64,000 bases of DNA from Candidatus Latescibacterota bacterium. Its GTDB lineage: Bacteria; Latescibacterota; UBA2968; GCA-2709665. Positions 41,808 to 58,799 of this stretch are shown here, piece by piece. The notes under the pieces are model-generated. The model saw only the letters and a program-made list of their open reading frames with translations. It was not told the DNA's origin and did not search any database. A program made the translations under genes and the position numbers. Location of the stretch: the NCBI GenBank assembly GCA_965222075.1, contig OZ244937.1, forward strand, positions 2,656,001 through 2,720,000, given 5' to 3'. How positions within the stretch are numbered: the stretch's first letter is position 1; every line of letters starts with the position of its first letter.

Positions 41808-42047
41808 TGGACTTGACCCGATTTGGGTGGACACCCATCTTCTTGTTATCTTGTTGAGGAGAAAGGAGGTTCATCATGCCTCAGACGCATCCACCGTATC
41901 CGCCGGAGTTTCGGCCTGCCTGTGCGTGGCACGTAGCCAGGTGGCGCACCCCGCATACATGGACTTGACCCGATTTGGTAGACAACTTATCTCTTTTAGA
42001 GAAAAGAGTCCACAATGAAAAAATCATATCCAGCAGCATTTCGCTAG
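41808..42047 (+). mobile_element. Two tandem IS3-family left-end remnants
   Basis: TGGACTTGACCCGATTTGG at 41808 and 41960, each followed by an SD and an OrfA-like start (MPQTHPPYPPEFR; MKKSYPAAFR*). Confidence 0.7.
41915..41941. repeat. 27-bp palindromic micro-insertion, copy 1
   Basis: CCTGCCTGTGCGTGGCACGTAGCCAGG directly after codon 13 of the IS3 stub. Confidence 0.7.
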
Positions 42048-42090
42048 AAACTGAATATGCTCAGACCTATCCACAACATTTCACAGAACG

Positions 42091-42630
42091 TCACTCGTAA
42101 CGAATAATCTGCTTAATGTCGCCGTGAGTCTGAGTTGGTCGTTCAGGCCCGTGAAATAATGTGGTCGCCAGTTTCGTAGAGTATCCTCGTTCGCCCCAAA
42201 TTGCCCAGATCAACGAGCAATCATTCTTTTTTAGGTAGTCCTGAAGCAGATTTTCTCGCATGAAGAATATATGCTGATAATTGTTATAGTCATCACCTTG
42301 ATCCGAGATACCAAGGGTTGCCCTAACGCCATCTGCTGTAAAAAAATCAAACTCTTGGGGACGGTTAATTAGATCAAGATCCTTTGCAATCTCCTTAGCT
42401 AACGTCACTGCGTGGCCTGCATCACTCGCCGCGCTTTGATACCCCTCCCACCCGAAATCACACACTGGAATTAACGCTTTAAATGTGGCAAATTCTTGCT
42501 CCATCTCTTCCTCTTCATAAGGAATTTCACGAACTTCGATCTTTGCCCAGTCATCATCCGTAAGTCGCTCATCTTCATTCTTATGAGGTTGAAAAAGGTG
42601 ATCAGGACACGTTAGATTATCCTTCAAATG
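42091..42630 (-). pseudogene. Low-GC C-terminal fragment resembling Avs2-type STAND NTPases
   Basis: Ends ...FMRENLLQDYLKKNDCSLIWAIWGER...; no N-terminal portion; AT-rich. Confidence 0.45.
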
Positions 42631-42742
42631 GGTAACCCTCAAAGAGGAGGATAATCATGGAAACGTTCGCCCTGCTCGAAGCAGTATTATACCGCTTTCG
42701 AGACCTGTTCGGTAGTCAAAACTTCGCGCTATTTTGTGCCTA

Positions 42743-42767
42743 CCTGCCTGTGCAGATGGCAGACAGG
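42743..42767. repeat. 25-bp palindromic micro-insertion, copy 2
   Basis: CCTGCCTGTGCAGATGGCAGACAGG; frameshifts the remnant. Confidence 0.75.
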
Positions 42768-42810
42768 TGTGGGGGGCGTGATAATCTGCAGTGGCCCTCA
42801 CACCGTCTCA

Positions 42811-43015
42811 GAAGCTGTCTTAAACCCCACGTCGGGCCGCTTTGCGGGGCTGTCGCCCTAGCGTCAAGCGATTCTCGAGGGCGAGACGCCCGCGTTCCAA
42901 GGGGTATTACGGCCTTGTACGACCATACCCTACCCCAACATGCGGGCGAGACGCCCGCGTTCCCGGGTGCTTTGATCCGCTTGAGGGACCCAACCCGGAA
43001 TTTTGAGACAGCTTC
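42811..43015. mobile_element. MITE, 205 bp, TCA target duplication
   Basis: tca|GAAGCTGTCTTAAA...TTTGAGACAGCTTC|tca; carries two GGGCGAGACGCCCGCGTTCC REP-like units. Confidence 0.8.
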
Positions 43016-43290
43016 TCAGAGCGACACCAGCTCGCCCATTGCCGACCGTAAATCCGCACGCTTGACAACACCTGCTCTGTTTCGGTACATTTCCGGTCCT
43101 GAGCGGTATCGGTACCCATCCTGAATGCCCTCCCGATATGGCTCGAATGTAGCCACAGTGATCTGCCATGTCAAGGACAATGCCGGCACAGGCGAGCGTT
43201 CGCCCTATTCGACCCGAACACTTACCGCAGACCGTCTGATCGACATGGTCAAACCTGGATGTTCCACAGACGGAGGACTGGAGACAGAAC

Positions 43291-44055
43291 ATGGCAGAGA
43301 AAGAATCGGACCCCTGCGTGCTCGACCGCATCCGCATCGTCCTGGTTGAGCCGAAAGCGCCCGGCAACGTCGGGTCTGTGGCCCGGGCCATGAAAAACAT
43401 GGGTCTCTCCCGGCTCTACCTGGTCAATCCCCCGGACCACAAATCGGGAGACGCCCGGAAAATGGCCCACGGATCGGGAGACGTCCTCTACGGCGCTACC
43501 GTGACCGAAACCCTCGAAGCTGCTCTGGCCGGAACCGTCCTGGCCGTGGGCACCACCCACAGAAGGCGCCAGAACATGGACCTCATGTACGGCCCCAAGG
43601 AGGCCGTCCGGCGCCTCACCTCCCTTCCCGGCGGCACCGAGGGCGCCCTCGTCTTTGGCCGGGAGGAAAACGGCCTCACCAACGACGAACTCCAGCTCTG
43701 CCAGCTCGTCGCCAGGATCCCCACCGCACATGCCTACCCCTCCCTCAACCTCGCCCAGGCTGCGCTCATCTTCGCCTACGAACTCTACCGGGCGGCCAAC
43801 AACCCGGCGCAGACCCCGCAGCTCGACCTCGCCTCCTTTGAAGAGATCGAATGCATGTACGCCCACATCGCCTCGGCCCTGGACAAACTCGGCTTCGTCC
43901 CCCGTCACCGTCCCGAGACCTTCCTGCGCGCCCTGCGTCGGCTCTTCGGGCGCATCCCCCTCGAACGGCGAGACACCGCCACTGTACACAAAATCTTCCG
44001 TCAGATCGACAAGTTCGTCGCCCGCCACGAAGATCAGGTCGAAAAGGGCACTTGA
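43291..44055 (+). CDS. trmJ: tRNA (cytidine/uridine-2'-O)-methyltransferase, TrmJ family
   Basis: IRIVLVEP..PGNVGSVARAMKNMG, VFGREENGLTNDEL, SLNLAQA. Confidence 0.93.
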   Translation: MAEKESDPCVLDRIRIVLVEPKAPGNVGSVARAMKNMGLSRLYLVNPPDHKSGDARKMAHGSGDVLYGATVTETLEAALAGTVLAVGTTHRRRQNMDLMYGPKEAVRRLTSLPGGTEGALVFGREENGLTNDELQLCQLVARIPTAHAYPSLNLAQAALIFAYELYRAANNPAQTPQLDLASFEEIECMYAHIASALDKLGFVPRHRPETFLRALRRLFGRIPLERRDTATVHKIFRQIDKFVARHEDQVEKGT

Positions 44056-44100
44056 GGGATTGCACGGTGACCGGGGCATGGGGGCTCAACATAAAAAAAC

Positions 44101-44127
44101 AGGGCGCACACGCAGGTGCGCCCCTAC
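44101..44127 (-). repeat. GTAG-type REP palindrome, possibly also a terminator
   Basis: GTAGGGGCGCACCTGCGTGTGCGCCC followed by a U tract on the minus strand. Confidence 0.7.
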
Positions 44128-44149
44128 GACCCCCCACCCCTTCCTTCTC

Positions 44150-44683
44150 TTACGCTGCCGACCCCGGCCGCCGCATCTCCACCCCTTCCTTCTCAAGGAT
44201 GTTCACCACCTTTGGAACAGGACACTGAAACCGCTCGGCGATCTGGTCCAGCGTTTGCCCCTCCTCGCGGTAGAGACGCACCATCTCACCCCTGGAAAGC
44301 ACCGCCTGATACCCCTTGTTCCCCTTTAAACCCGCGTGTTTAGTCACCTGAATATCCCCCGTCACCTCCATCTGGCAGGCGAGACGCAGGTTGCCTTTAA
44401 GCAGGAGAAAGCGGAGCTTCTCCTTGGCCCGCTTGACCGTCCCGCCTTTCTGGGGAACAACCTCGACTGTGCAGGTACCGCACAATCCATGCCCCTCGCA
44501 GTTAAAAAATCGGGACATCCCGTTGTAGAGATCAATATCGTTCTCAATGGCCAGTTCTCTGAGGTTGGTATGGGGCTTGCACCCCACCGTCCTGTTCCAG
44601 TTTGTAAAGGTCACCTTATGGCTCGTCTTTCGCTCCGGAAGGCGGAGGATAGGGGTCGGCATGGGCGTCTCCTGCTCTGGCAT
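44150..44683 (-). CDS. 2Fe-2S ferredoxin fused to a C-terminal helix-turn-helix
   Basis: C-x5-C-x2-C...RLACQ, then LYREEGQTLDQIAERFQCPVPKVVNILEKEGVEMR. Confidence 0.8.
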   Translation of the reverse strand: MPEQETPMPTPILRLPERKTSHKVTFTNWNRTVGCKPHTNLRELAIENDIDLYNGMSRFFNCEGHGLCGTCTVEVVPQKGGTVKRAKEKLRFLLLKGNLRLACQMEVTGDIQVTKHAGLKGNKGYQAVLSRGEMVRLYREEGQTLDQIAERFQCPVPKVVNILEKEGVEMRRPGSAA

Positions 44684-44838
44684 AGGGTTGTAAACAATCG
44701 TCGGCGCTCCACTGGAGCCGCTAAAAGGTAAAAATTTTTACCTCCAAAAACAAGGAGAAACCGGAGGTTCTTCGGGCCTTCAAGAAATCGTCTGAAAAGT
44801 ATTGCCAAAAGAGATAATTTATCCGTATATTGGGTGCC

Positions 44839-44863
44839 GGGCGAGGCAGCGCCTCGCCCCTAC
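44839..44863 (-). repeat. GTAG-type REP palindrome
   Basis: GTAGGGGCGAGGCGCTGCCTCGCCC. Confidence 0.7.
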
Positions 44864-44901
44864 GGTTGATTGCTGGTGCAAAGTCAGCCAAGGAGAACGC
44901 T

Positions 44902-45381
44902 TTGACCCGAACCTACAGGCCTTCAGACCTCGACACGCTCCGGGAAATTACACGCATCTGCTTCGACGGCATCTCCATCGACCAGCGCATCGAAAACGCC
45001 TTCGGCAGGATCGGCGAAACCGACTGGCGCTGGCGAAAGGCCAGCCACATTGACGTAGACGCCCGGGCCAACCCCGAAGGCATCTTTGTGTACGAAGAAA
45101 ATGGAACAGTCGCCGGCTATATTACCACCCGTATTGACCCCGACACCCGGATCGGCTCCATCCCCAACCTGGCCGTACTCCCACAACATCAGGGCAAGGG
45201 CATCGGCAAAGCCCTCATGGCCGCTGCGCTTGACTACTTTGAAACCAGCGGAATGGTCCTGGCAAGAATCGAGACCCTGGATCAAAATGAAATCGGCACC
45301 ATATTCTATCCCCGAACGGGCTTCCAGGAAGTCGCCCGGCAAATCCACTACGCCATGCCCCTTAAAAACCGAAAACTCTGA
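44902..45381 (+). CDS. GNAT family N-acetyltransferase
   Basis: LAVLPQHQGKGIGKAL, N....FY...GF; TTG start after AGGAG. Confidence 0.88.
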   Translation: MTRTYRPSDLDTLREITRICFDGISIDQRIENAFGRIGETDWRWRKASHIDVDARANPEGIFVYEENGTVAGYITTRIDPDTRIGSIPNLAVLPQHQGKGIGKALMAAALDYFETSGMVLARIETLDQNEIGTIFYPRTGFQEVARQIHYAMPLKNRKL

Positions 45382-45409
45382 CTGCCCGGCATCGTTTTGG
45401 GGAGGGGTG

Positions 45410-46207
45410 TCAATCTTCAACCTTCAATCTATAGACCTGCGGAAAACGTCTCCCCTCCATCACCTCTCCATCCCTCACCTCCACAAACGGCTTCATCACA
45501 TGCTCGCCGCTGGCCACGAACCGGGTCTCCTGGGTCATAAAATGGATTGCAATCGCCCGCCGGGGCCGGATGCTGGTATTGGCGTGCGACGCATGCCAGG
45601 TCAGCGCATGGTGGTAATGCACCTCTCCCTTCCGGACCGGACACCGCACCACCTCCACCGCGTGCCCGTCGAATTCGGACGGCATGTCTTCAAAGTCCTC
45701 CAGCCCGCTGAGAAAGTCGATCCGATTCCCCCATCTGTGTGACCCCGGCACCATGCTCATACAGCCGTTGGCCTCATCCACGTCATCTAAGGCAACCCAC
45801 GCACTCACCTCAGTCATCGGCGCCAGAATCGGCCACAGCGGCGCGTCCTGGTGCCACGTGGTTACGCCCCCCACCTCGGCCGGTTTGTACTGGATCTGGT
45901 CGTGCCAGACCCGCAGCTCGGTCGCCCCTGTCAGCTGCGCCATCTCCTCCACGACCTTCTGTTCAAAGATCAGTGTCCGGTACGGCTCGCTCGCCTCCCA
46001 GATATTCACAACCTGCCAGACCGGCGTCCCGGAATCCCGGTTCAGGTTCCGGAGCAGAACCGGCTGGGGGACATCCGGTTTGTCTTTGTCCTCGATCACT
46101 CGCGCCAGTCCCTCCCGCAGCGCCTCCACCCGATCGTCGTCCAGCAGGCGCCCCCCGTTGAGAAACCCCCTGGCATGGAATTCCGCGACCTGCGCCTCGG
46201 TCAACAT
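45410..46207 (-). CDS. Phytanoyl-CoA dioxygenase (PhyH) family protein
   Basis: WHQD, WVALDD..EANGC...PGSH, TWH.S..N.S..PRR. Confidence 0.92.
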   Translation of the reverse strand: MLTEAQVAEFHARGFLNGGRLLDDDRVEALREGLARVIEDKDKPDVPQPVLLRNLNRDSGTPVWQVVNIWEASEPYRTLIFEQKVVEEMAQLTGATELRVWHDQIQYKPAEVGGVTTWHQDAPLWPILAPMTEVSAWVALDDVDEANGCMSMVPGSHRWGNRIDFLSGLEDFEDMPSEFDGHAVEVVRCPVRKGEVHYHHALTWHASHANTSIRPRRAIAIHFMTQETRFVASGEHVMKPFVEVRDGEVMEGRRFPQVYRLKVED

Positions 46208-46262
46208 CAATAACTCCTCTTCGAAGAACTTTTTTCCAGTATTGCGCATCTTCTGATAAGCC

Positions 46263-46940
46263 TCACCCATGGTTCCGGTCCAGCTTCCGCTTCAGGGCCT
46301 GTAGCTCCTTCTCTACCCGCTTCTTCTGCTCCAGCTTTTCGAAGGCCTCATCCAGCATCGGGTTCGATCCGGCCACCTCCTCGTAGACCTCCGCCGCGGC
46401 CTCCTCGCCAGCCACCTCCTGGCAGAACCCCTCAAACCGCTCAAAAACGTCGGTTCTCACCCCCACAGGATGCCGCACAACGCCCCTCCGACCCTGCGCA
46501 ACCCGGCAGCGGGCCACGAGCGTCCGCTGGCGCGCCCGCGCCTCATCCAGTTTCGACTTGAACTGAGCCAGCTGCTGCTTGAGCTGCGCCGTAACCTGCC
46601 GGGCCTCCTCTAAGGCCGCTTCTAAGTCCTGCGCCGCCCCCATCGCCGTCGCCTTCTGATGCAACGCCTGCCGGGCCAGGTCGTCCTCTCCCGCCTCAAC
46701 GGCCTGAGCCGCCTTCATCTCCCAGGCCTCCTCCGCCGCCTGCACTTCCCGCAGCCGCCGTTCCAGCAGCTTCTCGTTGCCTATCGCCCTGCCCACCGTT
46801 GCAACCGCCTCCTCCACCGCCTCCTCCATCTCTAAAATCATCTGCCAAATCAGCTTCCCCGGGTCCTCCATCCGGCTCAGCAGATCGTCGATATCGGCCT
46901 TGATAATGTCGGCCACCCGTGATAGGGCTCCTTTCGCCAT
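46263..46940 (-). CDS. pspA: PspA/IM30 family protein
   Basis: IIKA.I..LL..MEDP, W..KA..AV..G..DLAR.AL, coiled coil. Confidence 0.92.
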   Translation of the reverse strand: MAKGALSRVADIIKADIDDLLSRMEDPGKLIWQMILEMEEAVEEAVATVGRAIGNEKLLERRLREVQAAEEAWEMKAAQAVEAGEDDLARQALHQKATAMGAAQDLEAALEEARQVTAQLKQQLAQFKSKLDEARARQRTLVARCRVAQGRRGVVRHPVGVRTDVFERFEGFCQEVAGEEAAAEVYEEVAGSNPMLDEAFEKLEQKKRVEKELQALKRKLDRNHG

Positions 46941-47004
46941 GGTCTTCGCTCCTCAATTAAAGTGGGTGAAATGCCTTCTGTTCAATTTGCAACCTCTTCC
47001 CCAT

Positions 47005-47019
47005 ACAAATGCTGTGCCA
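47005..47019 (-). promoter_or_regulatory. sigma54 (-24/-12) promoter of pspA
   Basis: TGGCAC-AGCAT-TTGT, an upstream AT-rich tract and the palindrome TTGGTAAAAACCACCAA (~47106-47122) as candidate activator site. Confidence 0.75.
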
Positions 47020-47215
47020 GAAAACCCAAAGAGGCCGAATATCGGCTAACACATTATTTTATTTAATACTTAAAATATTCTCTATAAAAATAACCGCCTG
47101 AGAAATTGGTAAAAACCACCAACACAGACGGCCAAATTCACCTCATGCCCCTCGCCTGACATATCGCGCAGGCATAAAATCACACGATTGGCGAGGTCTA
47201 AGTAGATACCCGAAG

Positions 47216-48343
47216 TTACGGCGCAGCGGCCGTCCTGGGCGCCGACAGGGACCGCACCTCGTGGGCCGGTTTGCCTCCAGACCGGCGCACCTGGATCAGT
47301 TCGGCCACAATGCTCACCGCGATCTCCTCCGGGTTGTCCGCCCCGATGTCCAGCCCAAGGGGCGCATGCACCTCCTCTAAGCGCTCTCGGGGGATGCCCT
47401 TCTCCTCTAACTCCTTCCACATCAGCGCAATCTTGCGCCGGCTGCCGATCATCCCGACGTAGGCCGCGTTTGTCACCACGGCCTGCTCGACCACGGGCTT
47501 GTCGTGCTGGTGCCCCCGGGTCACCGCCAGAACATAGGAAAGGCTGTCGATTGCCAGGTGCTCAAACGCCGTCTCCATCTCCAGCGTAAGCGTCTCATCG
47601 GCCATCGGGAACCGCTCCCGGTTGGCAAACATCGGCCGGTCGTCGATCACCACAATGCGGAACCCGACCGTATGGGCGATCCGGGCAATGGCAAAGGAGA
47701 CGTGCCCGCCGCCAAACAGGTAAAGCGTCGGCTCCGGACAAATCGACTCTAAGAAAATCTTGAGCGCCTCCCGGTCCTCCGCTGCCTCACCCTCCAGATC
47801 GATCACCTTCAACAGGTCCTCCGGAATCGAGTCCATCCCCTCTATCTCCGCCAGCACCGCCGCATCCGCCTCCGGGCAGCCCAGCGTGCCCAGCGTCGTG
47901 CGGTCTGCGCGCACCAGCAGCTTGGCGCTCTGTGAGGCCTTATCTCCCCCCGACACCAGCGTGGCCAGCACCCCCGACCCCCGCTCCGCCCGAATCTTCG
48001 CAATCTCCCTCAGGACCTCTTCTGGCCCTCCGGCATAGAGGGGCTCCGTGAAGATCTCCACGTTCCCGCCGCAGTTCAGCCCGTCCTCTCCTGCGTGCTC
48101 CTCCGTCAGAATAAACCGCTGAAGCGTCGGCTCTCCCGTCTCCATCACCTGCCGCGCCTCTGCCCACACATCCGCCTCTAAGCACCCGCCGCCCACCGTC
48201 CCCACAATCTTACCGTCGGGTCGCACCAGCATCTTCGCCTTCTTGCTCATCGGCAGCGACCCCTTGCTCGCCACAATCGTCGAAAGCACGGCCTTTTGCC
48301 CCTCCGAGATCAGGTCCAGCGCCTCTGTAAACACATCTGCCAT
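47216..48343 (-). CDS. XdhC/CoxI family Moco-insertion chaperone
   Basis: GTVGGGCLEA, CGG, FGGGHV, TRGHQHD, YVGMIGSRRK, PLGLDIGA.PEEIA. Confidence 0.93.
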   Translation of the reverse strand: MADVFTEALDLISEGQKAVLSTIVASKGSLPMSKKAKMLVRPDGKIVGTVGGGCLEADVWAEARQVMETGEPTLQRFILTEEHAGEDGLNCGGNVEIFTEPLYAGGPEEVLREIAKIRAERGSGVLATLVSGGDKASQSAKLLVRADRTTLGTLGCPEADAAVLAEIEGMDSIPEDLLKVIDLEGEAAEDREALKIFLESICPEPTLYLFGGGHVSFAIARIAHTVGFRIVVIDDRPMFANRERFPMADETLTLEMETAFEHLAIDSLSYVLAVTRGHQHDKPVVEQAVVTNAAYVGMIGSRRKIALMWKELEEKGIPRERLEEVHAPLGLDIGADNPEEIAVSIVAELIQVRRSGGKPAHEVRSLSAPRTAAAP

Positions 48344-48391
48344 CCAGACACCCCCTTCACTTGCGGATTTAAAATCTTCTATTCCGATGTC

Positions 48392-49534
48392 TTATCGCCA
48401 CACCGACCGCAATGTCTTGGCCAACTGTATTAAGCTCTCTAAGTTGTGTGCGGGTAAAAAATAGTCCAGATACGGCAGGGCCGTCTTCATGCCCAGGCAG
48501 AGCGGCTGGTAGCCCGGGCTCCCCAGGAGAGGGTTGAGCCAGACCAGCTTATGTACGCGCCGCCGGAGCCGCTCCATCTCCAGCCGCATCAGCCCCGCAT
48601 CCCCCCGGTCCCACCCGTCGCTTACAACAATCATCACCGTCTTGGACTTGAGCATATCGCGGGCAAACCGGTCGTTGAACTCCCGCAGACACCTCCCGAT
48701 GTCCGTTCCCCCCGCCCAGTCGTGCACCGTCTCCGATACCTCCTCCAGCGACTCCTCCACCCCCTTGGTCTTCAGCAGCCGCGAAATTGGCGTCATCCGG
48801 GTGGAAAACACCCCCACCTCCACATCCCGGATCTCCCGCTTCAGCGCGTAGATAAACTGGATCAGAAACTGGCTGTAGCAGTCCATTGACCCGCTCACAT
48901 CGCACAGCAGCATCAACTTCGCCTTCTTGATACGCCGCCGCCGCATGGCCAGTTCTACCCCGTCCCGACCGTAGACCGCGTTGCGCCGCCAGGTCCTCCG
49001 AAAGTCGATTTCCGCCCCCCGTTTTTCGGGCACCCGCCGCCGGCTGCGCCGGTTGGCAATAATATTCACAATCTCCGCAATCACCCGCCTGGCCTGCTCG
49101 ATCTCCTTGTCCGACATCGCGGCCAGGTCCTTCTGCATCAGCGCCTCGTCGGGGCTGTAGCCCACCTCCTCCGACTCCCCCTCCCCGTTGGCGTCTTCCT
49201 CCCCCCGGTCCACCGTCTCGACGCGTTCGTTCAGTTCGTCCAAGAGGTCCAGATTCGGGTCTTCCCCCTCCTCCTCGGACAGTTCCACCTCCGGCGTGTG
49301 GACGGGCATATCCCAGAACGCCAGGAACACCCGGTCGAACGTCTCTAAGTCGTCGTAGCGTGAGACCAGCGTCGCCCGGGCCGCCGCGTAAAAATCCCGG
49401 CGGTCGCTCACATCCACAAACTGGAAGCTCTGGCACAGGTCGAGCAGGTTGCCCGAATTCACCTCCACCCCGGCCCGGTGCAGCGACCGGGAAAACGCCA
49501 CCACCTGCCCCATCATGCTCCGGTCTCTTACCAT
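48392..49534 (-). CDS. CoxE-like VWA domain protein
   Basis: LCDVSGSM, GGTDIG, SDGWDRG, WLNPL. Confidence 0.92.
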   Translation of the reverse strand: MVRDRSMMGQVVAFSRSLHRAGVEVNSGNLLDLCQSFQFVDVSDRRDFYAAARATLVSRYDDLETFDRVFLAFWDMPVHTPEVELSEEEGEDPNLDLLDELNERVETVDRGEEDANGEGESEEVGYSPDEALMQKDLAAMSDKEIEQARRVIAEIVNIIANRRSRRRVPEKRGAEIDFRRTWRRNAVYGRDGVELAMRRRRIKKAKLMLLCDVSGSMDCYSQFLIQFIYALKREIRDVEVGVFSTRMTPISRLLKTKGVEESLEEVSETVHDWAGGTDIGRCLREFNDRFARDMLKSKTVMIVVSDGWDRGDAGLMRLEMERLRRRVHKLVWLNPLLGSPGYQPLCLGMKTALPYLDYFLPAHNLESLIQLAKTLRSVWR

Positions 49535-49549
49535 CTGCTCACCCAATCT

Positions 49550-50485
49550 TCAATCTTCAATCTCTACCGGCCTCGATACCCTTTTCTCAGCCCGCTCCTT
49601 CAGCATCCTGGCCTTCTCGATAATCTGAGGCAGGCCGTCCTTCTGGAGATTCTCAATATCTTCCTTGTACTTTAAAATACACCCGATCGTTGTGTCCACC
49701 GTCGGCGGGTCCAGCTCTTCGATATTCAGCGCCATCAGAGCCAGCGCCCAGTCGATCGTCTCGGCAATGCCGGGGCGCTTGTAGAAATCCCGGGTACGCA
49801 TCAACTGCATAAATCCGCAGACCTGCCGGGCCAGCTCCTCCTGGATGCCCGGCACCCGCGAATCCACGATATTCATCTCCTTCTCGAATGTCGGATAGTC
49901 GATCCAGAGGTAAAGACACCGCCGCTTCAACGCGTCGTGCAGCTCCCGCGTCCGGTTGGACGTCAGAACGACGAAGGGGATCTCCTTTGCTCCTACCGTG
50001 CCGATCTCCGGGATCGTAATCTGAAAATCGGACAGGACCTCTAAGAGGAAAGCCTCGAATTCTTCGTCACACCGGTCCACCTCATCAATCAGCAGAACCG
50101 GCGCCGTCCGCCCATCGCTCTGGATGGCCTGCAGCAGCGGACGCTTGAGCAGAAACTCCTCGCCGAAGATATTCCGCCCGATCTCCTCCTTCGCAATCCC
50201 CCGGGCCTCTTCCAGGCGCAGCTCCAGCATCTGCCTGGGGTAGTTCCACTCATAAAGCGCGGTATTCGCATCCAACCCTTCGTAACACTGCAGCCGGATC
50301 AGATCCGTCTTCAGGATCTCCGCCATCACCTTGGCCACTTCGGTCTTGCCAACCCCGGGTTCCCCCTCCAGAAAGATCGGTTTCCCCAAAGACATGGCCA
50401 GATATACCGTTGTGGCCAGTGTCCGGTCTGCAATGTACCCCTGCTCGGCGAACTTCGGCTCGACCTCCTCGATGGATTTAAACAT
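49550..50485 (-). CDS. CoxD-like MoxR AAA+ ATPase
   Basis: LEGEPGVGKT, RLQCYEG, LIDEVDR, TSNRTRELHDALKRRC. Confidence 0.94.
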   Translation of the reverse strand: MFKSIEEVEPKFAEQGYIADRTLATTVYLAMSLGKPIFLEGEPGVGKTEVAKVMAEILKTDLIRLQCYEGLDANTALYEWNYPRQMLELRLEEARGIAKEEIGRNIFGEEFLLKRPLLQAIQSDGRTAPVLLIDEVDRCDEEFEAFLLEVLSDFQITIPEIGTVGAKEIPFVVLTSNRTRELHDALKRRCLYLWIDYPTFEKEMNIVDSRVPGIQEELARQVCGFMQLMRTRDFYKRPGIAETIDWALALMALNIEELDPPTVDTTIGCILKYKEDIENLQKDGLPQIIEKARMLKERAEKRVSRPVEIED

Positions 50486-50615
50486 GATCTGTCCTGTTCG
50501 TCCTTTCTGAAGCTCAGAGATTCAACAATTCACCACAGGCGTGATTCGTTTTCTCGATACGCAATACACGATACACAATGTTGGTCTTTCTCTGCGTTCT
50601 GCGCGTCTCTGCGGT

Positions 50616-51137
50616 TCAAGTACATCGTTCCACCCACGCCCTGAGCGCATCGGCCGTACTCTGGAAAGCCAGATCCTCCCACGGAATCTCCGGGAGGGGA
50701 AAGGTCTGCACCTCCTGTGTCTCGGCATTCCCCCGGAGCGTCCCGCCCACGACCTGCCCCGTGTAGACGATTAGCACCACAGGCACCCCAGAATAGGAAT
50801 AGACCCCCAGCAGGTCCTCCACAGCCACCTCCAGCCCCACCTCCTCCCGGGCCTCCCGGGCCGCAGCCACATCCGTCGGCTCCCCCCGGTCCACGTATCC
50901 CCCGGGGAACACCCACTTCCCAATCGAAGGCTCGATCCCCCGCTTCAGCAGCACCACCTGCCCGTCCAGGGCCACAATCACGCCGGCAGCCACCTTCGGG
51001 TCCAGATACACGATAAACCCGCACGCCGGACAGGCCGGCAGTTCCTTTCCCTCAACCGGCCTCTGCTCAAGCGTATGCCCGCACCGTTCACAAAATCGGG
51101 TACCTGCCCCATGGATATGGGTTGCGATCTCGGCCAT
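50616..51137 (-). CDS. NUDIX hydrolase with N-terminal Zn ribbon
   Basis: FCERCG...CPACG, Nudix box GGYVDRGE....AAAREAREEVG. Confidence 0.92.
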   Translation of the reverse strand: MAEIATHIHGAGTRFCERCGHTLEQRPVEGKELPACPACGFIVYLDPKVAAGVIVALDGQVVLLKRGIEPSIGKWVFPGGYVDRGEPTDVAAAREAREEVGLEVAVEDLLGVYSYSGVPVVLIVYTGQVVGGTLRGNAETQEVQTFPLPEIPWEDLAFQSTADALRAWVERCT

Positions 51138-51255
51138 CTCTGGACTCCGACCCCCCCGGAAAAGGAGATTCAAACCATTTAAATATACAGGTTTCTGACC
51201 CCAGGACAAGCCCTTTTTGGAGGCGCTTTGCGCCGGGAAACGCAGACTGCCACAC

Positions 51256-51291
51256 AAAAAACCGCAGACCCCGAAAACCCGGGGCCTGCGG
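51256..51291 (-). terminator. Terminator after phoU
   Basis: CCGCAG.CCCC/GGGG.CTGCGG stem with U6 on the minus strand. Confidence 0.75.
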
Positions 51292-51313
51292 CTGGAGAAC
51301 GCCTCCCCTCATC

Positions 51314-52024
51314 TCACCCTTCCCCCTCACCTTCCCGTTCTACTGCCTCCTCCTGCCACAGGGCTTCCTTCTGGTGCCGCACGATCCGTCCCTGCACCAG
51401 GTAGACCACGTTCTCCGAAATATTCGACGCATGGTCGCCCATCCGCTCCAGGTGTCTGGAGACCAGGATCAGGTGAATCGCCCGGTCGATCACATCCTGT
51501 TCCAACTTTCCATGCAAATAGGTCAGCAGCTCGCGAAAGATCTGATCCCTCAGCCCATCGACAATGTCGTCCCGCCGGCGCACATCGTTGGCAAGCGCCA
51601 CATTTTGGTTCACAAACGCATCCAGAGCATCCTTCACCATCCCCTGCGCCAGCTCCGCCATTCGGGGAATATCGATCAGCGGCTTCAGCAGCGGCATCCG
51701 GTTTAATACCAGCGCCCTTTCGACAATATTCACCGCCTGATCGTTGATCCGCTCTAAGTCATAGTTGATCTTCATCACCGTTGCAATCAGGCGCAGGTCG
51801 CTGGCAACGGGATGCTGCACGGCCAGCAGCTTGAGGCACTCCTCCTCGATCTGGACCTCCCAATCGTCGATCCGGTCCCCCCCCTTCAGCACCTCCTCCG
51901 CCAGGTCGTTATCCCGGTCCACCAGGAAGCGCACCGCCTGGGCAATCGAATCCTCCACGGCCCCCCCCATCTTCAGCAACTCACCCTTCAGATGCTCTAA
52001 GTGCTGATCCAGTGTACGCTCCAT
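51314..52024 (-). CDS. phoU: Phosphate signalling protein PhoU
   Basis: QHPVASDLR, DLERIND.A.NI, LERMGDHASNISE. Confidence 0.96.
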   Translation of the reverse strand: MERTLDQHLEHLKGELLKMGGAVEDSIAQAVRFLVDRDNDLAEEVLKGGDRIDDWEVQIEEECLKLLAVQHPVASDLRLIATVMKINYDLERINDQAVNIVERALVLNRMPLLKPLIDIPRMAELAQGMVKDALDAFVNQNVALANDVRRRDDIVDGLRDQIFRELLTYLHGKLEQDVIDRAIHLILVSRHLERMGDHASNISENVVYLVQGRIVRHQKEALWQEEAVEREGEGEG

Positions 52025-52101
52025 GGCCACTCCCTGGAATTTCGGATTGCGGATTTCAGAATGCGGATTGAAGCGCTTTCATTCCCCAATCCCCTATGGT
52101 C

Positions 52102-52923
52102 TTACCCGAACCGTCCGGTCACATAATCTTCGGTCTGCTTCAACCTGGGGTTGGTAAATATCTCCTCCGTCCAGGCGTACTCGACGAGCCGCCCCAGGTA
52201 GAAAAATGCCGTAAGATCGGATACCCGCGACGCCTGCTGAAGGTTGTGTGTCACAATCACAATCGTATACTGTTTTTTCAGTTCCTCAATCGTCTCTTCA
52301 ATCCGCCCCGTTGCGATCGGATCCAGTGCCGAACAGGGCTCATCCATCAATATCACCGACGGCTCCACCGCTATCGCCCGCGCAATGCACAGCCGCTGCT
52401 GCTGCCCGCCCGACAGACCCAGTGCGCCCTCATCCAGCCTCTCCTTTACCTCGTCCCACAGCGCCGCCGCGCGCAAGCTCCGCTCGGCCGATTCGTCCAG
52501 CACAGACCGCCGGTTCTCCCCGGCGATCCGAAGCCCATAAATCACGTTTTCATAGATCGACTTCGGAAACGGGTTCGACTTCTGGAACACCATCCCAACC
52601 CGGCGCCGGAGGGAAATCACATCGTAGTCCGACCCGTAAATGTCCTCCCCGGCAATCCTCACCATGCCCTCAATCCGAACCGAATCGATCAGATCGTTCA
52701 GCCGGTTCATGCACCGCAGCAGGGTCGATTTCCCGCATCCCGACGGCCCGATAAGCGCCGTCACCCGGTACTCGGGTACCTGCAGGTCGATATCAAACAG
52801 CGCCTGGGTCTCTCCATAGTGCAGGTTCAGGCCTTCCACCTCCACAATCGGTCGCTCCACAACGGGCGCATCCACCTGAACCTGATCGTCGTCTGTCCTC
52901 TCCACCTGCGCAGCCATCGCCAT
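52102..52923 (-). CDS. pstB: Phosphate ABC transporter ATPase
   Basis: [38 protein letters not shown]; AGGAG SD. Confidence 0.97.
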
Positions 52924-52943
52924 TGTGCTCCTTAGAAGCTGAT

Positions 52944-54557
52944 TTAAAACCCGACCTTTGCAAACCGCTTCCGTAAACGGCCGCGGACCAGGATCGCAGT
53001 CAGATTCAGGGCCAGAACAATAGCCACCAGCAGCAGCGTGGTCGTATAGACCATCGGCCGGGCCGCCTCCACGTTGGGCGACTGGAACCCCACATCGTAG
53101 ATGTGAAACCCTAAGTGCATAAACTTCCGGTCTAAGTGGAAAAACGGCCAGTGCCCGTCCAGCGGCAGCGACGGCGCCAGCTTGACCACCCCCGTAATCA
53201 TCAGTGGGGCCACCTCTCCCGCCCCGCGCGCGATCACCAGGATCATCCCCGTCAAAATGCCCGGTAGCGCGCCGGGTAGCAGCACACGCCAGATTGTCTG
53301 AAACTTCGTCGCCCCAAGCGCCAGCGACCCCTCCCGCACCTCGCCGGGCACGGCCGCCAGCGCCTCCTCTGCGGCCACAATCATCACCGGCACCGTCAAA
53401 AGCGCCAGGGTCAGCGACGCCCAGAAGATCCCCCCTGTGCCGAACGTCGGCGTCGGCAGCGCCTCCGGATAGAACAGCTGGTCGATGCTCCCCCCCACCC
53501 CGTATACGAAGAAACCGAGCCCGAACATCCCAAACACAATCGAAGGCACCCCTGCCAGATTGTTCACTGCAATCCGGACCACCCGCACCAGCGGCCCCTG
53601 CCTGGCGTACTCCCGCAGGTAAAGCGCCGCCAGTACCCCGAAGGGCACAGCCGCTAAGCTCATCAGAAACACCATCATCACCGTCCCGAAGATCGCCGGG
53701 AAAACTCCGCCCTCCGTGTTCGACTCCCTCGGCTCGTCCGCCAAGAACTCCCACACCCGGGAGAAGTAGACCTTCAGCTTCCCTGTCGTGCCCAGCCGGT
53801 TGGGACGGTAGGCCCGGACGATATCGGCCACGGCCACCCGCCGCACCTCCCCTCCGGCCAGGGCGACCTCCACCTGGTAGGTCTCACCCTCTGCACGCAG
53901 CCGGGACAGCTTCTGGGCCAGGCGCTCGTAGCGTGTCCAGTACTGCCGGTTCTCTTCGTCTAAGCGTTCGATCTCCGCCTCTCCGCGCCCGGCCAGTTCC
54001 AGCCTGCGCTTCTCCAACCGGAGTTGCTCGATCCGGCGGTTCAGGTTTCCGATGGCGTCCTCCTCGATCTCCCGGATCTGCGCCCGGATCCGTCCGGTCA
54101 CCCGCAGCCCCCCCTGCATGGCGGCCCACCCGACTTCAGGCCCCTCGGCCAGGATCTGCTCACCCTCGTACACCCCCCGGAGAAACCCGAACATCTGGCC
54201 CCATTCGCGCCGTTCAAAGATCACCGCATTGCGCGGGGTTTCACGCGCTTCAATCCGGTCCTCGTCGATCCACCGGAAATCGTCCCCGTACACATCCCGG
54301 TTGCCCACCTTGACCTGCGTTCGATATTCGGCCTGAGCCTTCCCGTCCTGCGTCGGGATCTCCTGCCGGTCCCACACCTGGCCCATCATAGCCGTTCCGT
54401 CCGCCAGGCCGAAGGCCACCAGATTGCCCGGCCAGAAAAACCCGAGCCCGTTGTAGACCACCACCCCCACCAAGCCCGCGACCATCAACAGACAGAAGGC
54501 AAGCGCCCCGCCGGTAAGCCAGATAAACGGCTCACCCGATCTCCAGAACCTGTTCAT
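52944..54557 (-). CDS. pstA: Phosphate ABC permease PstA, long form
   Basis: [32 protein letters not shown]; large periplasmic insert. Confidence 0.95.
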
Positions 54558-56824
54558 ATCCGACTGTACCTCTCCCGCAGCCGCTGCCGAACAATCTCGG
54601 CCGCGGTATTCACCAGAAACGTCACACCCGCCAGCAGCAGGCCGGTCAAAAACAGCACCCGGTAGAGCGTGCCCTCGTGGGGAGCCTCTGGAATCTCCAC
54701 TGCAATATTTGCCGACAGCGTACGCATCCCGTTGAAGATGCTCCAGTCCATAATCGGGGTATTCCCCGTCGCCATCAGCACAATCATCGTCTCCCCCACC
54801 GCCCGTCCAAAGCCGATCATCGCCGCTGAAAAGATCCCGGGGCTGGCCGTGGGCAGCACCACCCGCAGCGCCGTCTGCCAGGGCGTGGCCCCCAGCGCAA
54901 GCGACCCGCCCCGCAGGTGGGACGGCACGCTTGAAAGCGCATCCTCGCAGATCGTATAGATAATCGGCACCACCGCGAACCCCATCGCAAACCCCACCAC
55001 CAAGCAGTTGCGCTGATCGTAGCGGGTGTCCGACGTCTGCATCAGCCAGCGCTGGAAATTTCCGCCGAAAAGGGCGCGCTCCACCTCCGGTCCCAGCACA
55101 AAGGCGAGCCAGGCCGCCAGCGCCGTCACCGGCACCAGGAGATAGATCTCCCCCTGGTCGGGCAGCCAGCGCACGGCCCGCCTGGGAAGCCGTTTAAAGA
55201 CCCAGGCGGCCAGCACCACCACCGCCGGCACGGCCGGAAACAGGAGCAGCGCGCCCACGGCCCCCCGTTCCAGGAGGGGAGCCATCCAGAGCCCGGCCAA
55301 GAACCCTAAGATCACACTGGGCAGCGAAGCCATCAACTCCACCGTCGGCTTTACCGCGTTCCGGATCTCCGGACGAGCGAACTCCGACGTGTAGATAGCG
55401 GCCAGAACCGCTAAAGGCAGAGCGAACAGCATCGCATAAAACGTCCCCTTGGCCGTACCGAAGGCCAGCGGAACGATGCCCAGCTTCGGCTCGAATTCGT
55501 CCGTCCCGCCCGTGGACTGCCACACGTGCGCCGGTCCTTCATACCCCTCGTACCAGACCTCGCCGAAGAGCGTCTTCAGCGTCACCTCCGGGTGCGGATT
55601 GTGCAGGCGGTAGTGCACCAGCCGCCCGCCTCCGTCTAATCCCAAAAACCCGTCGGCCTTGGGGGCAAAGACCACTGCCGAAATTCCGGCCCCGCCCGCA
55701 GACATCCGGAAGAAGGTCTGTTCCGAAGTCATGTGGTGCAGCGCCAGGTTCCCCTCCGTATCCCCCGTCAAAAACTGTTTGTCCCGCTCGGACGGGGCGA
55801 TCGCCGTCACCGCCCCCTGGTGGGGCTCAAACGCGTGGATCTTTTGATATCCCTGAAAACCGGGACGCCCCGACTGCCGCACCGGAAACCAGGTGCTCAC
55901 CCGCCCCGCCCCATCTCCCACCGCCACCGACACATCCCCCAAGAGGAACTCAAGCGCCGTAATCGCCTGCCCTTCCTCAGCCGCCTGGAAGCGCTGCGTC
56001 CGCTGTGGACGCGTTGGGGGGTCGGAAACATCAAAGCGGAAGATCTCACCCCGGTCCGTCCCTGCCAGCACAGTCTGCCCGCGCCCGTCGGTCAACACCG
56101 CTGTCGGACGTCCCGCGATATCTTCCGTCAGATCGTATACAAACACCTCCCGTCTGCCGCCTCCCAGCAGCCCCCGCTTCTGCACAACCGCCGCGGTCAC
56201 CAGCCGCCCCGAAGCCGTGACCCCAACCACCGTCGCCCGCCTCGCCCCGTCGTTCCGGTAAGCCACCCTCACAACCGCCTCGCCCCCACCGTCCAGCCGG
56301 ACCTCCCCCTCAACGGACAGCTCCGGCGTCACGATTCGCTCGCCTCCCGTGTAGCCTACCGAAAAGGTCACCCGAGCCGCAACCACGCTCCCCTCGTCGG
56401 TTCCCAGCCCCAGGTACCCGTCCACAGGAGACCGGTAGACCGAAACGATCCGGCGTCCGGCAAGCGCCTCGGGCCGTTCCTGCCGGAGCACCGCCCCGCT
56501 TGCCAGATCGACAAAATCGATCCCCTCCGCACGCACCACGTAGCCCACCTCCCGATAGGGACCGGCGCCCACGGCCAGGGCCTGCCCGCCGCCGGAGGCG
56601 TCCCACGTCCCGACCGCTTCGGCCTCCGGACTCAGGAAAAGCGGATAGGCCTCCCGCAGCACAAACACAAAAATTCCCAGCACCACCGCAATCACCCCGA
56701 TCCCGCCCACCGCAATCACCCACCGCCCTACCCGGTCCATCAGCCGTGCGGTCGGCGTGATCCCCGGCAGCGACCGAATCTCTGCATTCAGATCGGTCTT
56801 CTCTTCAACGTCGGGATGTGCCAT
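54554..56824 (-). CDS. pstC: Phosphate ABC permease PstC, long form with a beta-propeller-like domain
   Basis: KPTVELMASLPSV, SLALGATPWQT, GRAVGETM; WD40-like repeats upstream. Confidence 0.93.
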   Translation of the reverse strand: MAHPDVEEKTDLNAEIRSLPGITPTARLMDRVGRWVIAVGGIGVIAVVLGIFVFVLREAYPLFLSPEAEAVGTWDASGGGQALAVGAGPYREVGYVVRAEGIDFVDLASGAVLRQERPEALAGRRIVSVYRSPVDGYLGLGTDEGSVVAARVTFSVGYTGGERIVTPELSVEGEVRLDGGGEAVVRVAYRNDGARRATVVGVTASGRLVTAAVVQKRGLLGGGRREVFVYDLTEDIAGRPTAVLTDGRGQTVLAGTDRGEIFRFDVSDPPTRPQRTQRFQAAEEGQAITALEFLLGDVSVAVGDGAGRVSTWFPVRQSGRPGFQGYQKIHAFEPHQGAVTAIAPSERDKQFLTGDTEGNLALHHMTSEQTFFRMSAGGAGISAVVFAPKADGFLGLDGGGRLVHYRLHNPHPEVTLKTLFGEVWYEGYEGPAHVWQSTGGTDEFEPKLGIVPLAFGTAKGTFYAMLFALPLAVLAAIYTSEFARPEIRNAVKPTVELMASLPSVILGFLAGLWMAPLLERGAVGALLLFPAVPAVVVLAAWVFKRLPRRAVRWLPDQGEIYLLVPVTALAAWLAFVLGPEVERALFGGNFQRWLMQTSDTRYDQRNCLVVGFAMGFAVVPIIYTICEDALSSVPSHLRGGSLALGATPWQTALRVVLPTASPGIFSAAMIGFGRAVGETMIVLMATGNTPIMDWSIFNGMRTLSANIAVEIPEAPHEGTLYRVLFLTGLLLAGVTFLVNTAAEIVRQRLRERYSRI

Positions 56825-56869
56825 GTGACCATCCTGAAAAACAGCCGGGGGCTACCCGGCGGATCGTCC

Positions 56870-57841
56870 CTACTCGATTTTCGCCAGCTCCTCTTTTACC
56901 ACTTCGTACGGCACCGGCATATACCCATCCTTGATCACGACCTCCTGCCCCTCTTTGGAAAAGATAAACCGGCAGAACTCCCGCACCATCGGATCCAGCG
57001 GCTTTTCCGGCGCCTTGTTGATGTAGATATAGAGGAATCGTCCCAGCGGATAGGAACCGTCCAGCACGTTCTCCATTGTACCCTCACGGTAGGGCTGACC
57101 TTTCTCCCCCGCCAGAGGCAACACGCGCACCCCCGAGGTCTTGTACCCAATGCCGCTGTACCCGATGCCGTACCGGTCTTCCGTGATGCCCTGAACCACC
57201 GACGCCGATCCCGGCTGCTCCTTCACCTCATCCTTGTAGTCTCCCTTAAACAGGGCGTTCTTCTTGAAAAACCCGTACGTGCCGGACGCCGAATTCCGCC
57301 CATACAGACTGATAGAGGCCAGCTTCCACTCCCCCCCCAGCCCCAGGCCACCCCACCGGGTGATATCTTCCGGATACCCACCCCTTCGGGTCTTGGAAAA
57401 GATCGCGTCCACCTGGGGTAGCAACAGCCCTTCGATCGGGTTGTCCTTATTCACGAACACTGCCAGAGCGTCCAGCGATGTCCTCAGAGTCGTGGGGGTG
57501 TACCCGAACCGCTTCTCGAACTTATCGCTCTCCGTCGCCTTCATCGAGCGCGACATCGGACCGAACTGCGCCGTCCCTTCAATCAACGCCGGGGGCACCG
57601 TGCTCGACCCCTTCCCCTCAATCTGGATCCGCACGCTCGGATAGTACTTCCGAAACCTCTCCAGCCAGAGCGCCATCAGGTTGTTCATCGTATCCGACCC
57701 GATGCTGCTGGCGCTTCCCGAAATCCCGCTCACCTTCTGATACAGTGGAATCCGAGAGTCCACCTTCAACGTCTGCCCCAGGGCCGTTCCGTCGACCATC
57801 ATACCCAGGACCGCCAGGACAATTGCAACACCCCTTGCCAT
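56870..57841 (-). CDS. pstS: Phosphate-binding periplasmic protein
   Basis: GSDT, GKGSST, GRNSASGT, YPLGR; start set at MARGV. Confidence 0.95.
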   Translation of the reverse strand: MARGVAIVLAVLGMMVDGTALGQTLKVDSRIPLYQKVSGISGSASSIGSDTMNNLMALWLERFRKYYPSVRIQIEGKGSSTVPPALIEGTAQFGPMSRSMKATESDKFEKRFGYTPTTLRTSLDALAVFVNKDNPIEGLLLPQVDAIFSKTRRGGYPEDITRWGGLGLGGEWKLASISLYGRNSASGTYGFFKKNALFKGDYKDEVKEQPGSASVVQGITEDRYGIGYSGIGYKTSGVRVLPLAGEKGQPYREGTMENVLDGSYPLGRFLYIYINKAPEKPLDPMVREFCRFIFSKEGQEVVIKDGYMPVPYEVVKEELAKIE

Positions 57842-57938
57842 CAGATCTCCCCCCTGAAAAGAGCCTCCGTTGACAGAACGCCCGTGGGCGTTTCTTATCA
57901 TACGTTCCTTTCCGTTTTCTTCAACATAATCCGATAAG

Positions 57939-58082
57939 CAATGGTGTGAACACCTTTGCTTATCGGGGCCGAAATCTGGTCCTGTGGAATTTGTAGGGAT
58001 TTGTTTCGATAACTTGCAAATCCCAAATCCAATTTGCATAACTATAAGTTTTTAAAGATTTAAAAACCTGTTCACGTTATTG
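57939..58082. mobile_element. MITE-like element sharing ends with the nearby IS remnant
   Basis: CAATGGTGTGAACA...TGTTCACGTTATTG; the IS end at 58465 is CAATAGTGTGAACA; no perfect target duplication. Confidence 0.55.
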
Positions 58083-58558
58083 ATAGTGGCAATTTCCTCC
58101 CGATACAAGAATCGTTAACGCTGCTGGTATGATGGGAAAAGCTCGAGAAGTCTCGTCGGTCAACTCTGTCATCATCAACTCTTGCCGACTATTGCTTTTT
58201 TCACGCTTTTGTCCTGTGTAAAGTTTCAAAAAAAACTGGCTGCTCCATAACTCTTTATATTATAGAAACTTAAATTTTTGAGCGAAAACGCGAGCAATCA
58301 GTCGCCTATGGTGCGGATGATGCGTCCCTGCTGGTCAACCACGTAAATCGGCTCCCGCCTGAGACCGACGCCGCACAACAGCTTCGGCTACGCCGGAGTG
58401 GACGGCGCCAGACGCCCCATCAGGCGCCCTTCTTTTTTGGCCTTTTTCTTGGGCGAGCAAGAAACAATAGTGTGAACAATTTTAGGCAGCAATTTTGCCA
58501 TATTCTCTGAGCATTTGGTATTCGGGTCGTTTTTTTATCCAAGTTGGGTCCAAACCGA

Positions 58559-58585
58559 CTTGCCTGCGCGCAGCGCGCAAGCAGG
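58559..58585. repeat. 27-bp palindromic micro-insertion, copy 3 (in frame)
   Basis: CTTGCCTGCGCGCAGCGCGCAAGCAGG; removal restores RIIRIFGLDP. Confidence 0.8.
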
Positions 58586-58772
58586 AGATGCGAATAATTC
58601 GATCCAGGTAATGTTGATTGAAATAGAGTGCTTTAACACTGGCCATTGAACAGATGACCGATTGGTCGTTTTCCTGGGTCAGTGTAAGTTCAGCTTTGGC
58701 CAGATTCAGTGTGGTCAAAGACGCGTTGAAGTGAAAGTCCAACCGTTTTTGGTCTCGTGCCTGGCAGTCACA

Positions 58773-58799
58773 CCTGCCTGTGCGGTGCACGCAGACAGG
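58773..58799. repeat. 27-bp palindromic micro-insertion, copy 4 (in frame)
   Basis: CCTGCCTGTGCGGTGCACGCAGACAGG; removal restores KQFTGLCDCQAR. Confidence 0.85.

Follow-up and report, generated by a model that had tools for sequence, protein, structure and literature searches.

Very small DNA hairpins, probably mobile, in a Latescibacterota genome and in records titled as many other phyla

Four short hairpins interrupt remnants of insertion sequences (IS) in a stretch of 64,000 nucleotides (nt) from a Candidatus Latescibacterota bacterium, here called the window, which spans genome positions 2656001-2720000 of a one-contig genome of 5.36 Mb with 59% G+C (contig OZ244937.1). They probably belong to a superfamily of mobile DNA hairpins, 25-36 nt long, non-coding and non-autonomous, which share the pattern CCTGYCTG...CAGRCAGG and are referred to below as the CCTG family. 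The strict pattern is found at 215 loci of the genome, and relaxed ends give 252 matches in about 237 loci; the pattern proposed in the original prediction, which was made from the letters of the window alone, gives 77 matches genome-wide. The exact 27-mer of one subfamily, type A, is present in 37 copies, as compared to 0 for the reversed control. Within the window the strict ends (CCTGYCTG-N9-20-CAGRCAGG) match twice, as compared to 0 matches in each of 100 dinucleotide-preserving shuffles.

Direct reading of the sequence confirmed the four hairpins at the coordinates first reported for them, and a scan that allowed up to two substitutions found no further copies of types A-D in the rest of the window. 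The hairpins and the frames that harbor them are as follows (window positions):

41915-41941, plus strand: site 1, a 27-nt type A hairpin, decayed, with two changes in the 3' arm
42743-42767, plus strand: site 2, a 25-nt type C hairpin, frame-shifting, in an IS701-like transposase stub
58559-58585, no strand assigned: site 3, a 27-nt type B hairpin, in frame in an IS4-like open reading frame (ORF)
58773-58799, plus strand: site 4, an exact 27-nt type A hairpin, in frame in the same IS4-like ORF
41876-41914, plus strand: start of an IS3-family orfA stub, MPQTHPPYPPEFR, from direct reading
42657-42742, plus strand: N-terminus of an IS701-like transposase, 29 codons, METFALLEAVLYRFRDLFGSQNFALFCAY
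58482-58982, minus strand: remnant C-terminus of an IS4-like DDE transposase, YYKLRFQIEFLFRDAKQFTGL..., in which sites 3 and 4 reside

All four hairpins are insertions into IS-derived reading frames, as had been claimed, and the related claim that their excision restores a frame holds at site 2, at sites 3 and 4, and at site 1. Site 2 lies after codon 29 of the IS701-like gene, at ...GCCTA^TGTGG..., and removal of its 25 nt fuses FCAY to VGGVIICSGPHTVSEA; an identical fragment, also filled, is found at genome position 114365. Sites 3 (with the ends CTTGCCTG...CAAGCAGG) and 4 (CCTGCCTGTGCG-GTG-CACGCAGACAGG) each contribute nine in-frame codons to the IS4-like ORF, i.e., CLRAARRQV and, on the minus strand, PVCVHRTGR, respectively. 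A paralogue at genome 5150296-5149973 (tblastn, 56% identity), in a region that matches DDE_Tnp_1 and DDE_5, is without exactly these two nine-residue stretches. Site 1 follows codon 13 (...PEFR) of the orfA stub, the label of which, IS3 family, we presume from a motif rather than from a Pfam call. The stub region is 89% homologous to genome 3422250-3422114, where a hairpin identical in place to site 1 is followed by QQMVA. Left flank and element are shared between the two loci, 10 nt that are present at 3422114 are missing beside the site-1 hairpin, and the two hairpins stem from one insertion event. An IS end sequence precedes the stub and is repeated at 41962-41980. Rfam gave no family at the hairpin sites at gathering score.

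The architecture of the family was analyzed for 225 simple, non-overlapping loci, which were also used for the length and gene-context counts given below. The general plan is a 7-bp outer stem (CCTGYCT/AGGCAGG), a one-sided bulge of 2-3 nt, an inner stem of 4-8 bp and a short loop. With inner stems counted at four or more Watson-Crick pairs, 182 of the 225 loci fit this plan, only 4 of the fits being bulge-less, and a 5' GC, GCA or GCC bulge is found on exactly one strand at 132 loci. The outer stem and the bulge are strongly conserved, while the inner-stem sequence varies between subfamilies; all 34 distinct inner stems still pair, i.e., pairing is kept while the sequence changes, which bears out the earlier observation of conserved ends and a variable interior. 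The lengths peak at 27 nt (70 pairs) and 33 nt (97 pairs), with further peaks at 30, 36 and 25 nt. In type A the strand with the 5' bulge also has the odd pair as T.G and not C.A, and a ViennaRNA calculation for site 4 showed that the minus strand (5'-CCTGTCT, GC bulge, GTGC stem) folds better.

Comparison of filled and empty sites supports the original suggestion of a very small palindrome that is inserted without target duplication. A CRISPR array at genome 2492815-2496475, which lies about 160 kb upstream of the window, is composed of 50 repeats of 36 nt, of which 48 are empty, while the two adjacent repeats at the low-coordinate end carry the 27-mer at GGCCG^CGATC with zero bases duplicated or lost. 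Both copies have the same loop, so that one insertion followed by duplication of the repeat is likely. (The spacers of this array are about 36-41 nt long, and an AT-rich stretch before the interrupted end may mark the leader side.) A second case is an AcrB-family gene at 1498725-1501964, where the 27-mer at CCGA^TCAC adds the residues LPVRRTQTG. The orthologues in all four aligned relatives, one of which belongs to the same genus, are shorter by exactly 27 nt. Among contigs of other samples, one that is about 96% identical is without exactly these 27 nt, and the insert is kept in two near-identical strains. In other samples the word depth rises about 30-60-fold over the element at this locus, which indicates that many copies are present in the sampled communities.

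The target is defined by the flanking bases. At 144 oriented loci of the source genome the flank pairs are G/C (51), A/T (39), G/T (15), A/C (11) and others (28), which points to insertion at a purine^pyrimidine (R^Y) step. Among 120 distinct contexts of type A in other genomes, G (98) and A (14) predominate at -1, and C (57) and T (45) at +1. Insertion occurs in either orientation, and the new junctions (R|C...G|Y) are again purine^pyrimidine steps. Copies are also found within copies: type B is nested in type A after CCTGTCTG^CG and type A in type B after CCTGCTTG^CG or ...GCG^CG. Such 60-nt composites are found 21 times in the source genome, and double and triple nesting is seen in genomes of other phyla. 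Beyond the step itself, the flanks in other genomes display a slight excess of pairing (9 contexts with at least 6 of 10 positions paired, 4.4 expected).

The part of the original prediction that did not stand is that the hairpins are found only inside transposase remnants. IS zones, defined as matches to the Pfam families DDE_Tnp_1, rve and DDE_5 extended by 700 nt on each side (17 zones, 32 kb), hold 23 of the 237 loci; the other 214 lie outside, two CRISPR repeats carry copies, and the 225 simple loci are distributed over intergenic DNA (153), weak ORFs (32) and strong genes (40). Hosts confirmed by Pfam are two AcrB-family transporters, a molybdopterin-binding dehydrogenase subunit, and FG-GAP/ASPIC, LRR and DsbH-like proteins. 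The density is 0.72 loci per kb in the IS zones, 9 of the 17 zones having at least one copy, 0.19 per kb in other intergenic DNA and 0.016 per kb in strong genes. Two of the zones that are hit are duplicate IS copies (1604 kb and 4161 kb) with the same three hairpins; because the small stubs of the window fall outside the zones as defined, the true IS share is somewhat higher. The intact-looking transposase ORFs (5143137, 3455991, 5150162 and 2157015) are free of hairpins. The five densest clusters of hairpins are found between ordinary genes, in stretches with no Pfam match or with fragments of rve_3, DDE_Tnp_1 or UPF0236.

This gradient fits what a selection filter gives, and such a filter would account for the fact that the window displays hairpins only in transposase remnants. 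The second branch of the original prediction, i.e., that the hairpins persist where selection is relaxed, thus agrees with the densities and also with a filter on length. Lengths are multiples of three at 180 of the 225 loci (27 nt, 53; 30 nt, 18; 33 nt, 95; 36 nt, 14). Stems grow by 2 nt per base pair, so that folding does not explain steps of three. No stop triplet is found in any of the six frames at 205 of 225 loci, the corresponding values for shuffled copies and random genomic windows being 40% and 27%, respectively; when only the variable interior is considered, 91% are stop-free, as compared to 57%. Among the 40 loci in strong genes 35 have multiple-of-three lengths; of the remaining five, three or more consist of a 27- or 30-nt unit and a neighboring CAGG-type repeat that the pattern included in the match. 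The 25-nt form, with 13 copies, is absent from strong genes.

The family is unevenly distributed among related genomes and reaches far beyond them. The strict count varies from 0 to 190 among 30 relatives and from 0 to 193 within one genus; 13 of 121 sampled genomes of the phylum hold at least 14 loci, 12 of these belonging to the family of the source organism and one, G021, to a sister family. In a species-genome collection, at least 118 stretches contain the exact type A 27-mer, and their records are titled as many phyla. The titles among the matches listed include Thermodesulfobacteriota, Nitrospirota, Verrucomicrobia, Kiritimatiellae, Latescibacterota, Planctomycetota and Methylomirabilota, and further Anaerolineae, Acidobacteriota, Bacillota, Spirochaeta, Elusimicrobia and one Methanosarcinales bin. 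The same 27-mer is found in 19 viral-contig stretches. Five genomes of other groups harbor 21, 35, 31, 10 and 83 exact copies, each with its own dominant loop, a signature of within-genome amplification. At seven loci examined in the small genome with 83 copies, the 27-mer is central in a palindrome of about 90 nt, ...TTGAGCGATTTTGTAAGGCAGG[27-mer]TCTGAATATAGAATCGCTCAA....

At slightly less than even confidence, we consider a wider interpretation in which the hairpins constitute a cross-phylum, horizontally spreading class of mobile DNA, with one exact 27-mer that would be active or recently active in many bacterial phyla and in viral contigs. The class would have evolved its ORF-compatible design, which would allow it to colonize coding sequence, and it may enter any R^Y step by a route outside the described transposition pathways, mobilized in trans by a RAYT-like (REP-associated tyrosine transposase; REP, repetitive extragenic palindromic) Y1 enzyme that is unlinked to the hairpin, or by an unrecognized enzyme. 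In the narrower interpretation, which we consider probable, the point of entry is, as the filled and empty sites show, precisely the junction of a purine with a pyrimidine (most often G^C, A^T or G^T), and target bases are neither duplicated nor deleted. In a gene a copy would add 9-12 residues, given lengths of mostly 27, 30, 33 and 36 nt and the lack of stops in six frames. Selection would then sort the survivors, which would be common in dead IS and non-coding DNA and rarer in genes, the 25-nt form being absent from good genes. One strand would be recognized through the asymmetric bulge, in its folded single-stranded form, by a trans-acting enzyme that cuts R^Y steps at both ends of the element and at the target. 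Asymmetric bulges are read by proteins that bind folded single strands, e.g., the IS608 TnpA, RAYT and the integron integrase.

The Y1 (HUH) proteins of the RAYT-like type are the leading candidate mobilizer, which we consider possible rather than probable, the greater part of our expectation being left to an unrecognized enzyme or a host function. At E <= 0.001 the source genome gave no match to Resolvase, the IS110 DEDD domain or the TnpB zinc ribbon, and at E <= 1e-8 none to RVT_1, nor was there an RVT_1 match in G021, which has 79 loci. The source genome harbors two full tyrosine recombinases and fragments of others, only a broken fragment of a Y2 gene, and three Y1 loci. The first of these, an IS200-like gene at 2071937-2072296, has end hairpins that are unrelated to the CCTG family; the second, at 3018501, is broken and, from sequence reading only, has a type C copy 150 nt away; the third, at 3242104-3242868, is the RAYT-like gene, which was missed by Pfam and found with proteins of relatives. 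This last gene encodes 255 residues with an HVH motif and lies (region 3241493-3242980) between two direct repeats of 140 nt; the small ORFs upstream of it are toxin-antitoxin-like, judged by reading their translations. The locus may be described as a REPtron-like unit without a large REP family. In three relatives the RAYT-like genes are surrounded by hairpins of the form CGAGGGCA-N3-4-TGCCCTCG, which also run through the upstream reading frames.

The case for these proteins is based on co-occurrence. Of 10 relatives that have 14 or more loci, 9 carry a RAYT-like gene, as compared to 3 of 21 with 6 or fewer, and such genes are also present in three of three further rich genomes; because the genomes are kin and the counts non-independent, these numbers overstate the link between RAYT and hairpins. 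Divergent Y1-like genes are found in all five rich genomes of other groups and in 6 of 14 control genomes. The Y1 loci of other phyla were considered as a source and rejected, since the hairpins found there are ordinary insertions and not end structures. A search around the hairpins themselves yielded no recurrent neighbor gene: clustering of 2606 ORFs from 118 loci of other genomes gave a largest cluster that covered 7 loci. Only one gene in the source genome has CCTG hairpins on both sides. Nor was a long element with the same ends found, as distances between orphan ends in the range 400-6000 nt recur at most twice.

Several observations weigh against the interpretation that the hairpins are mobile and spread between phyla. 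None of the data is an observed transposition event, and no enzyme is tied to the hairpins. The RAYT-like query gave no match in G021, none of the Y1 genes analyzed in the source genome or at six loci of other phyla is flanked by CCTG hairpins, and the 140-nt repeats around the RAYT-like gene hold instead three GTAG/CTAC-tagged hairpins, of which the genome contains only 2-4 copies. If the mechanism acted on single strands of the lagging strand, as for IS608, a replication-strand bias would be expected, and none is seen with replichore limits taken from GC skew (32/29 vs 39/44, Fisher p = 0.61, n = 144). The folding energies are ordinary relative to shuffled sequences (z from -0.1 to -2.1). 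The gene calls are those of our own crude caller (3906 genes, 85% coding). The taxon labels are those of metagenome bins, where single contigs could be mis-binned. Some copies have multiplied as passengers, as in the two IS copies with the same three hairpins, and most of the copies seen from the 83-copy genome sit in the larger palindromic repeat, a composite that probably accounts for much of that number. In addition, several paralogous homologies end at hairpin borders. Two further IS701-like stubs break 1-2 nt from the position of site 2, and a type B copy at genome 818683 joins half a type A copy to IS4-like sequence. Copies thus seem to be places of deletion or recombination, which may be due to the mobilizing enzyme or to ordinary recombination.

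Some of these points would be expected if the hairpins were immobile, i.e., if a few ancient insertions had been multiplied as passengers of IS, larger palindromes and duplications, and then shuffled by recombination. The shared hairpins at 1604 kb and 4161 kb, the single event behind site 1 and its counterpart at 3422114, the repeat of about 90 nt and the chimeric junctions at hairpin borders are all in line with such a scenario. We nevertheless consider it unlikely, because solitary, clean 27-nt differences between filled and empty sites are found in unique genes and in a CRISPR repeat where nothing else has changed, because the 120 flanks from other genomes are mutually different with no protein family recurring nearby (largest cluster, 7 loci), and because nesting occurs at many different positions.

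Very unlikely, in our view, is a spread by reverse transcription of RNA copies into the target, a route reportedly proposed for small dispersed repeats of cyanobacteria. The absence of a replication-strand bias would be compatible with an RNA intermediate, as would the fact that G.T pairs maintain the structure on just one of the strands (CCTGTCT/AGGCAGG, 26 loci). However, RVT_1 is lacking, at the threshold given above, both in the source genome with its 215 loci and in G021, and the hairpins have no orientation bias with respect to host genes (same direction, 18; opposite direction, 11; p = 0.26). To a similar degree improbable is the possibility that the hairpins are sites useful to the host (terminators, mRNA stabilizers or protein-binding sites) that are kept by selection, as suggested for REP sequences. 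The strong conservation of the outer stem and bulge and the intergenic position of 153 of 225 loci, by crude calls, in a genome that is 85% coding could be understood in these terms. Less readily understood are the copies in genes, CRISPR repeats, dead IS DNA and each other, the range from 0 to 193 within one genus, and the same 27-mer in unrelated phyla; furthermore, a function would not exclude mobility.

The least probable explanation is the anti-transposon system offered in the original prediction, in which mobile DNA would be targeted by the hairpins and transposases would be inactivated: the IS zones do have 3.9 times the density of other intergenic DNA, with 9 of 17 hit, and the four copies of the window as well as several clusters lie in IS remnants, yet 90% of the loci (214 of 237) are found outside such zones, the four intact-looking transposase ORFs carry no hairpin, CRISPR repeats and housekeeping genes are interrupted too, 27-nt copies that are in frame and stop-free do not inactivate (the IS4-like ORF is open through both of its copies), and part of the IS excess is due to duplication of IS that already carried hairpins.

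Elements of this kind are already known, both as mobile hairpins of the REP type and as small dispersed repeats with mutual nesting; unusual in the CCTG family are the exact 27-mer across phyla, the base-defined R^Y target and the ORF-compatible design. REPs and REPINs with RAYT (Y1 HUH) are described as imperfect palindromes of 20-40 nt, in high copy number and mostly extragenic (Di Nocera et al. 2013, PMC3733652; Bertels & Rainey 2011, PMC3116915). REP super-families are defined by a GTAG or CGTC tetranucleotide tag at one end, and CGTC REPs have no dedicated transposase adjoining (PMC3733652). Measured against these descriptions, the CCTG hairpins are similar in being short imperfect palindromes at about 237 loci, mainly intergenic (153 of 225) with some in genes, in having copy numbers that vary widely between related genomes, possibly in co-occurring with RAYT-like genes and, as for the CGTC REPs, in having no adjoining dedicated transposase. 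They differ, on the same basis, in that all listed subfamilies have CCTGYCTG...CAGRCAGG ends with no GTAG/CGTC tag. Also different are the surroundings of the RAYT-like gene in the source genome, which is flanked by GTAG-type and not by CCTG hairpins as would be the case in a REPtron, and, in comparison to REPINs, the lack of any doublet spacing up to 400 nt besides nesting. REPs are regarded as lineage-specific, whereas an identical CCTG 27-mer is found across many phyla, and the CCTG family has exact empty and filled sites and nests in itself.

Small dispersed repeats, SDR1-8 of Nostoc and relatives, are reportedly 21-27 nt long with a shared fold and compensatory changes; they are said to insert into themselves and into other small repeats, to be confined to one cyanobacterial group, and to have been proposed as the smallest mobile elements. 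The CCTG hairpins, at 25-36 nt, resemble them in a common fold kept by compensatory changes (34 inner stems) and in nested insertion into their own copies, a CCTG copy being also central in a larger palindromic repeat. Judged by description rather than by sequence, the CCTG family differs by its presence in many phyla, under titles that are not cyanobacterial, by lengths of 27-36 nt in steps of three, by in-frame copies in genes and by a defined R^Y target. Rickettsia palindromic elements are about 100-150 bp in length and are not known outside Rickettsia; the likeness is that of palindromic repeats in frame within genes that stay open, while the CCTG hairpins are 25-36 nt and cross-phylum. 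The Rickettsia elements are also mentioned by Di Nocera et al. (PMC3733652). In contrast to miniature elements derived from DDE transposons, there is no target duplication at the pairs of empty and filled sites, and orphan ends 400-6000 nt apart gave no full-length partner with the same ends.

IS200/IS605 derivatives move by single-strand "peel and paste" catalyzed by the Y1 enzyme TnpA, without target duplication, and have hairpins with unpaired bases. The CCTG family shares with them the insertion without target duplication, the unpaired bases in the hairpin and the presence of Y1 genes in the genome; it differs in having one hairpin and not two, in the lack of a left-flank target of 4-5 nt, where only positions -1 and +1 are biased, and in the lack of a replication-strand bias. 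A literature search, with supplementary tables outside its scope, found no description of the CCTG family, and 12-mers of the element matched only unrelated primers.

Other features of the window were noted in passing. The segment 58421-58464 is a unit of 42-44 nt (TCAGGCGCCCTTCTTTTTTGGCC...) that belongs to a separate, abundant family of small repeats, found at more than 50 other places of the genome with 93-98% identity among the matches listed. To the right of site 2, positions 42806-43020 are a mosaic of other short repeats with matches of 70-140 nt at many places of the genome, one of which adjoins three hairpins at genome 1139014-1139359, about 153-166 nt apart. Two small ORFs of 66 and 86 residues, which overlap one another on the minus strand at 41248-41705, immediately upstream of the IS3 stub, look like a toxin-antitoxin-type pair. 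The minus-strand rRNA operon at 20165-25408 (16S, two tRNAs, 23S and 5S) holds no hairpin of the CCTG family; its 23S match extends over 3032 nt, as compared to a model of 2925 nt, and may hold about 100 extra bases.

If the CCTG hairpins are indeed mobile, they would be among the smallest mobile DNA known, and, with the same 27 bases found in many phyla, they would not be a curiosity of one lineage. They would also offer a clean system in which to address the old question of how REP-like hairpins move, given a target defined to the base (R^Y), the absence of duplication, the many pairs of filled and empty sites, and one-contig genomes in which the candidate enzymes can be narrowed down. For annotation, the element would matter as a source of 9-12 additional residues in real proteins, as an interruption that splits CRISPR repeats, as a marker of recombination breakpoints, and as a cause of inflated read depth in metagenomes.

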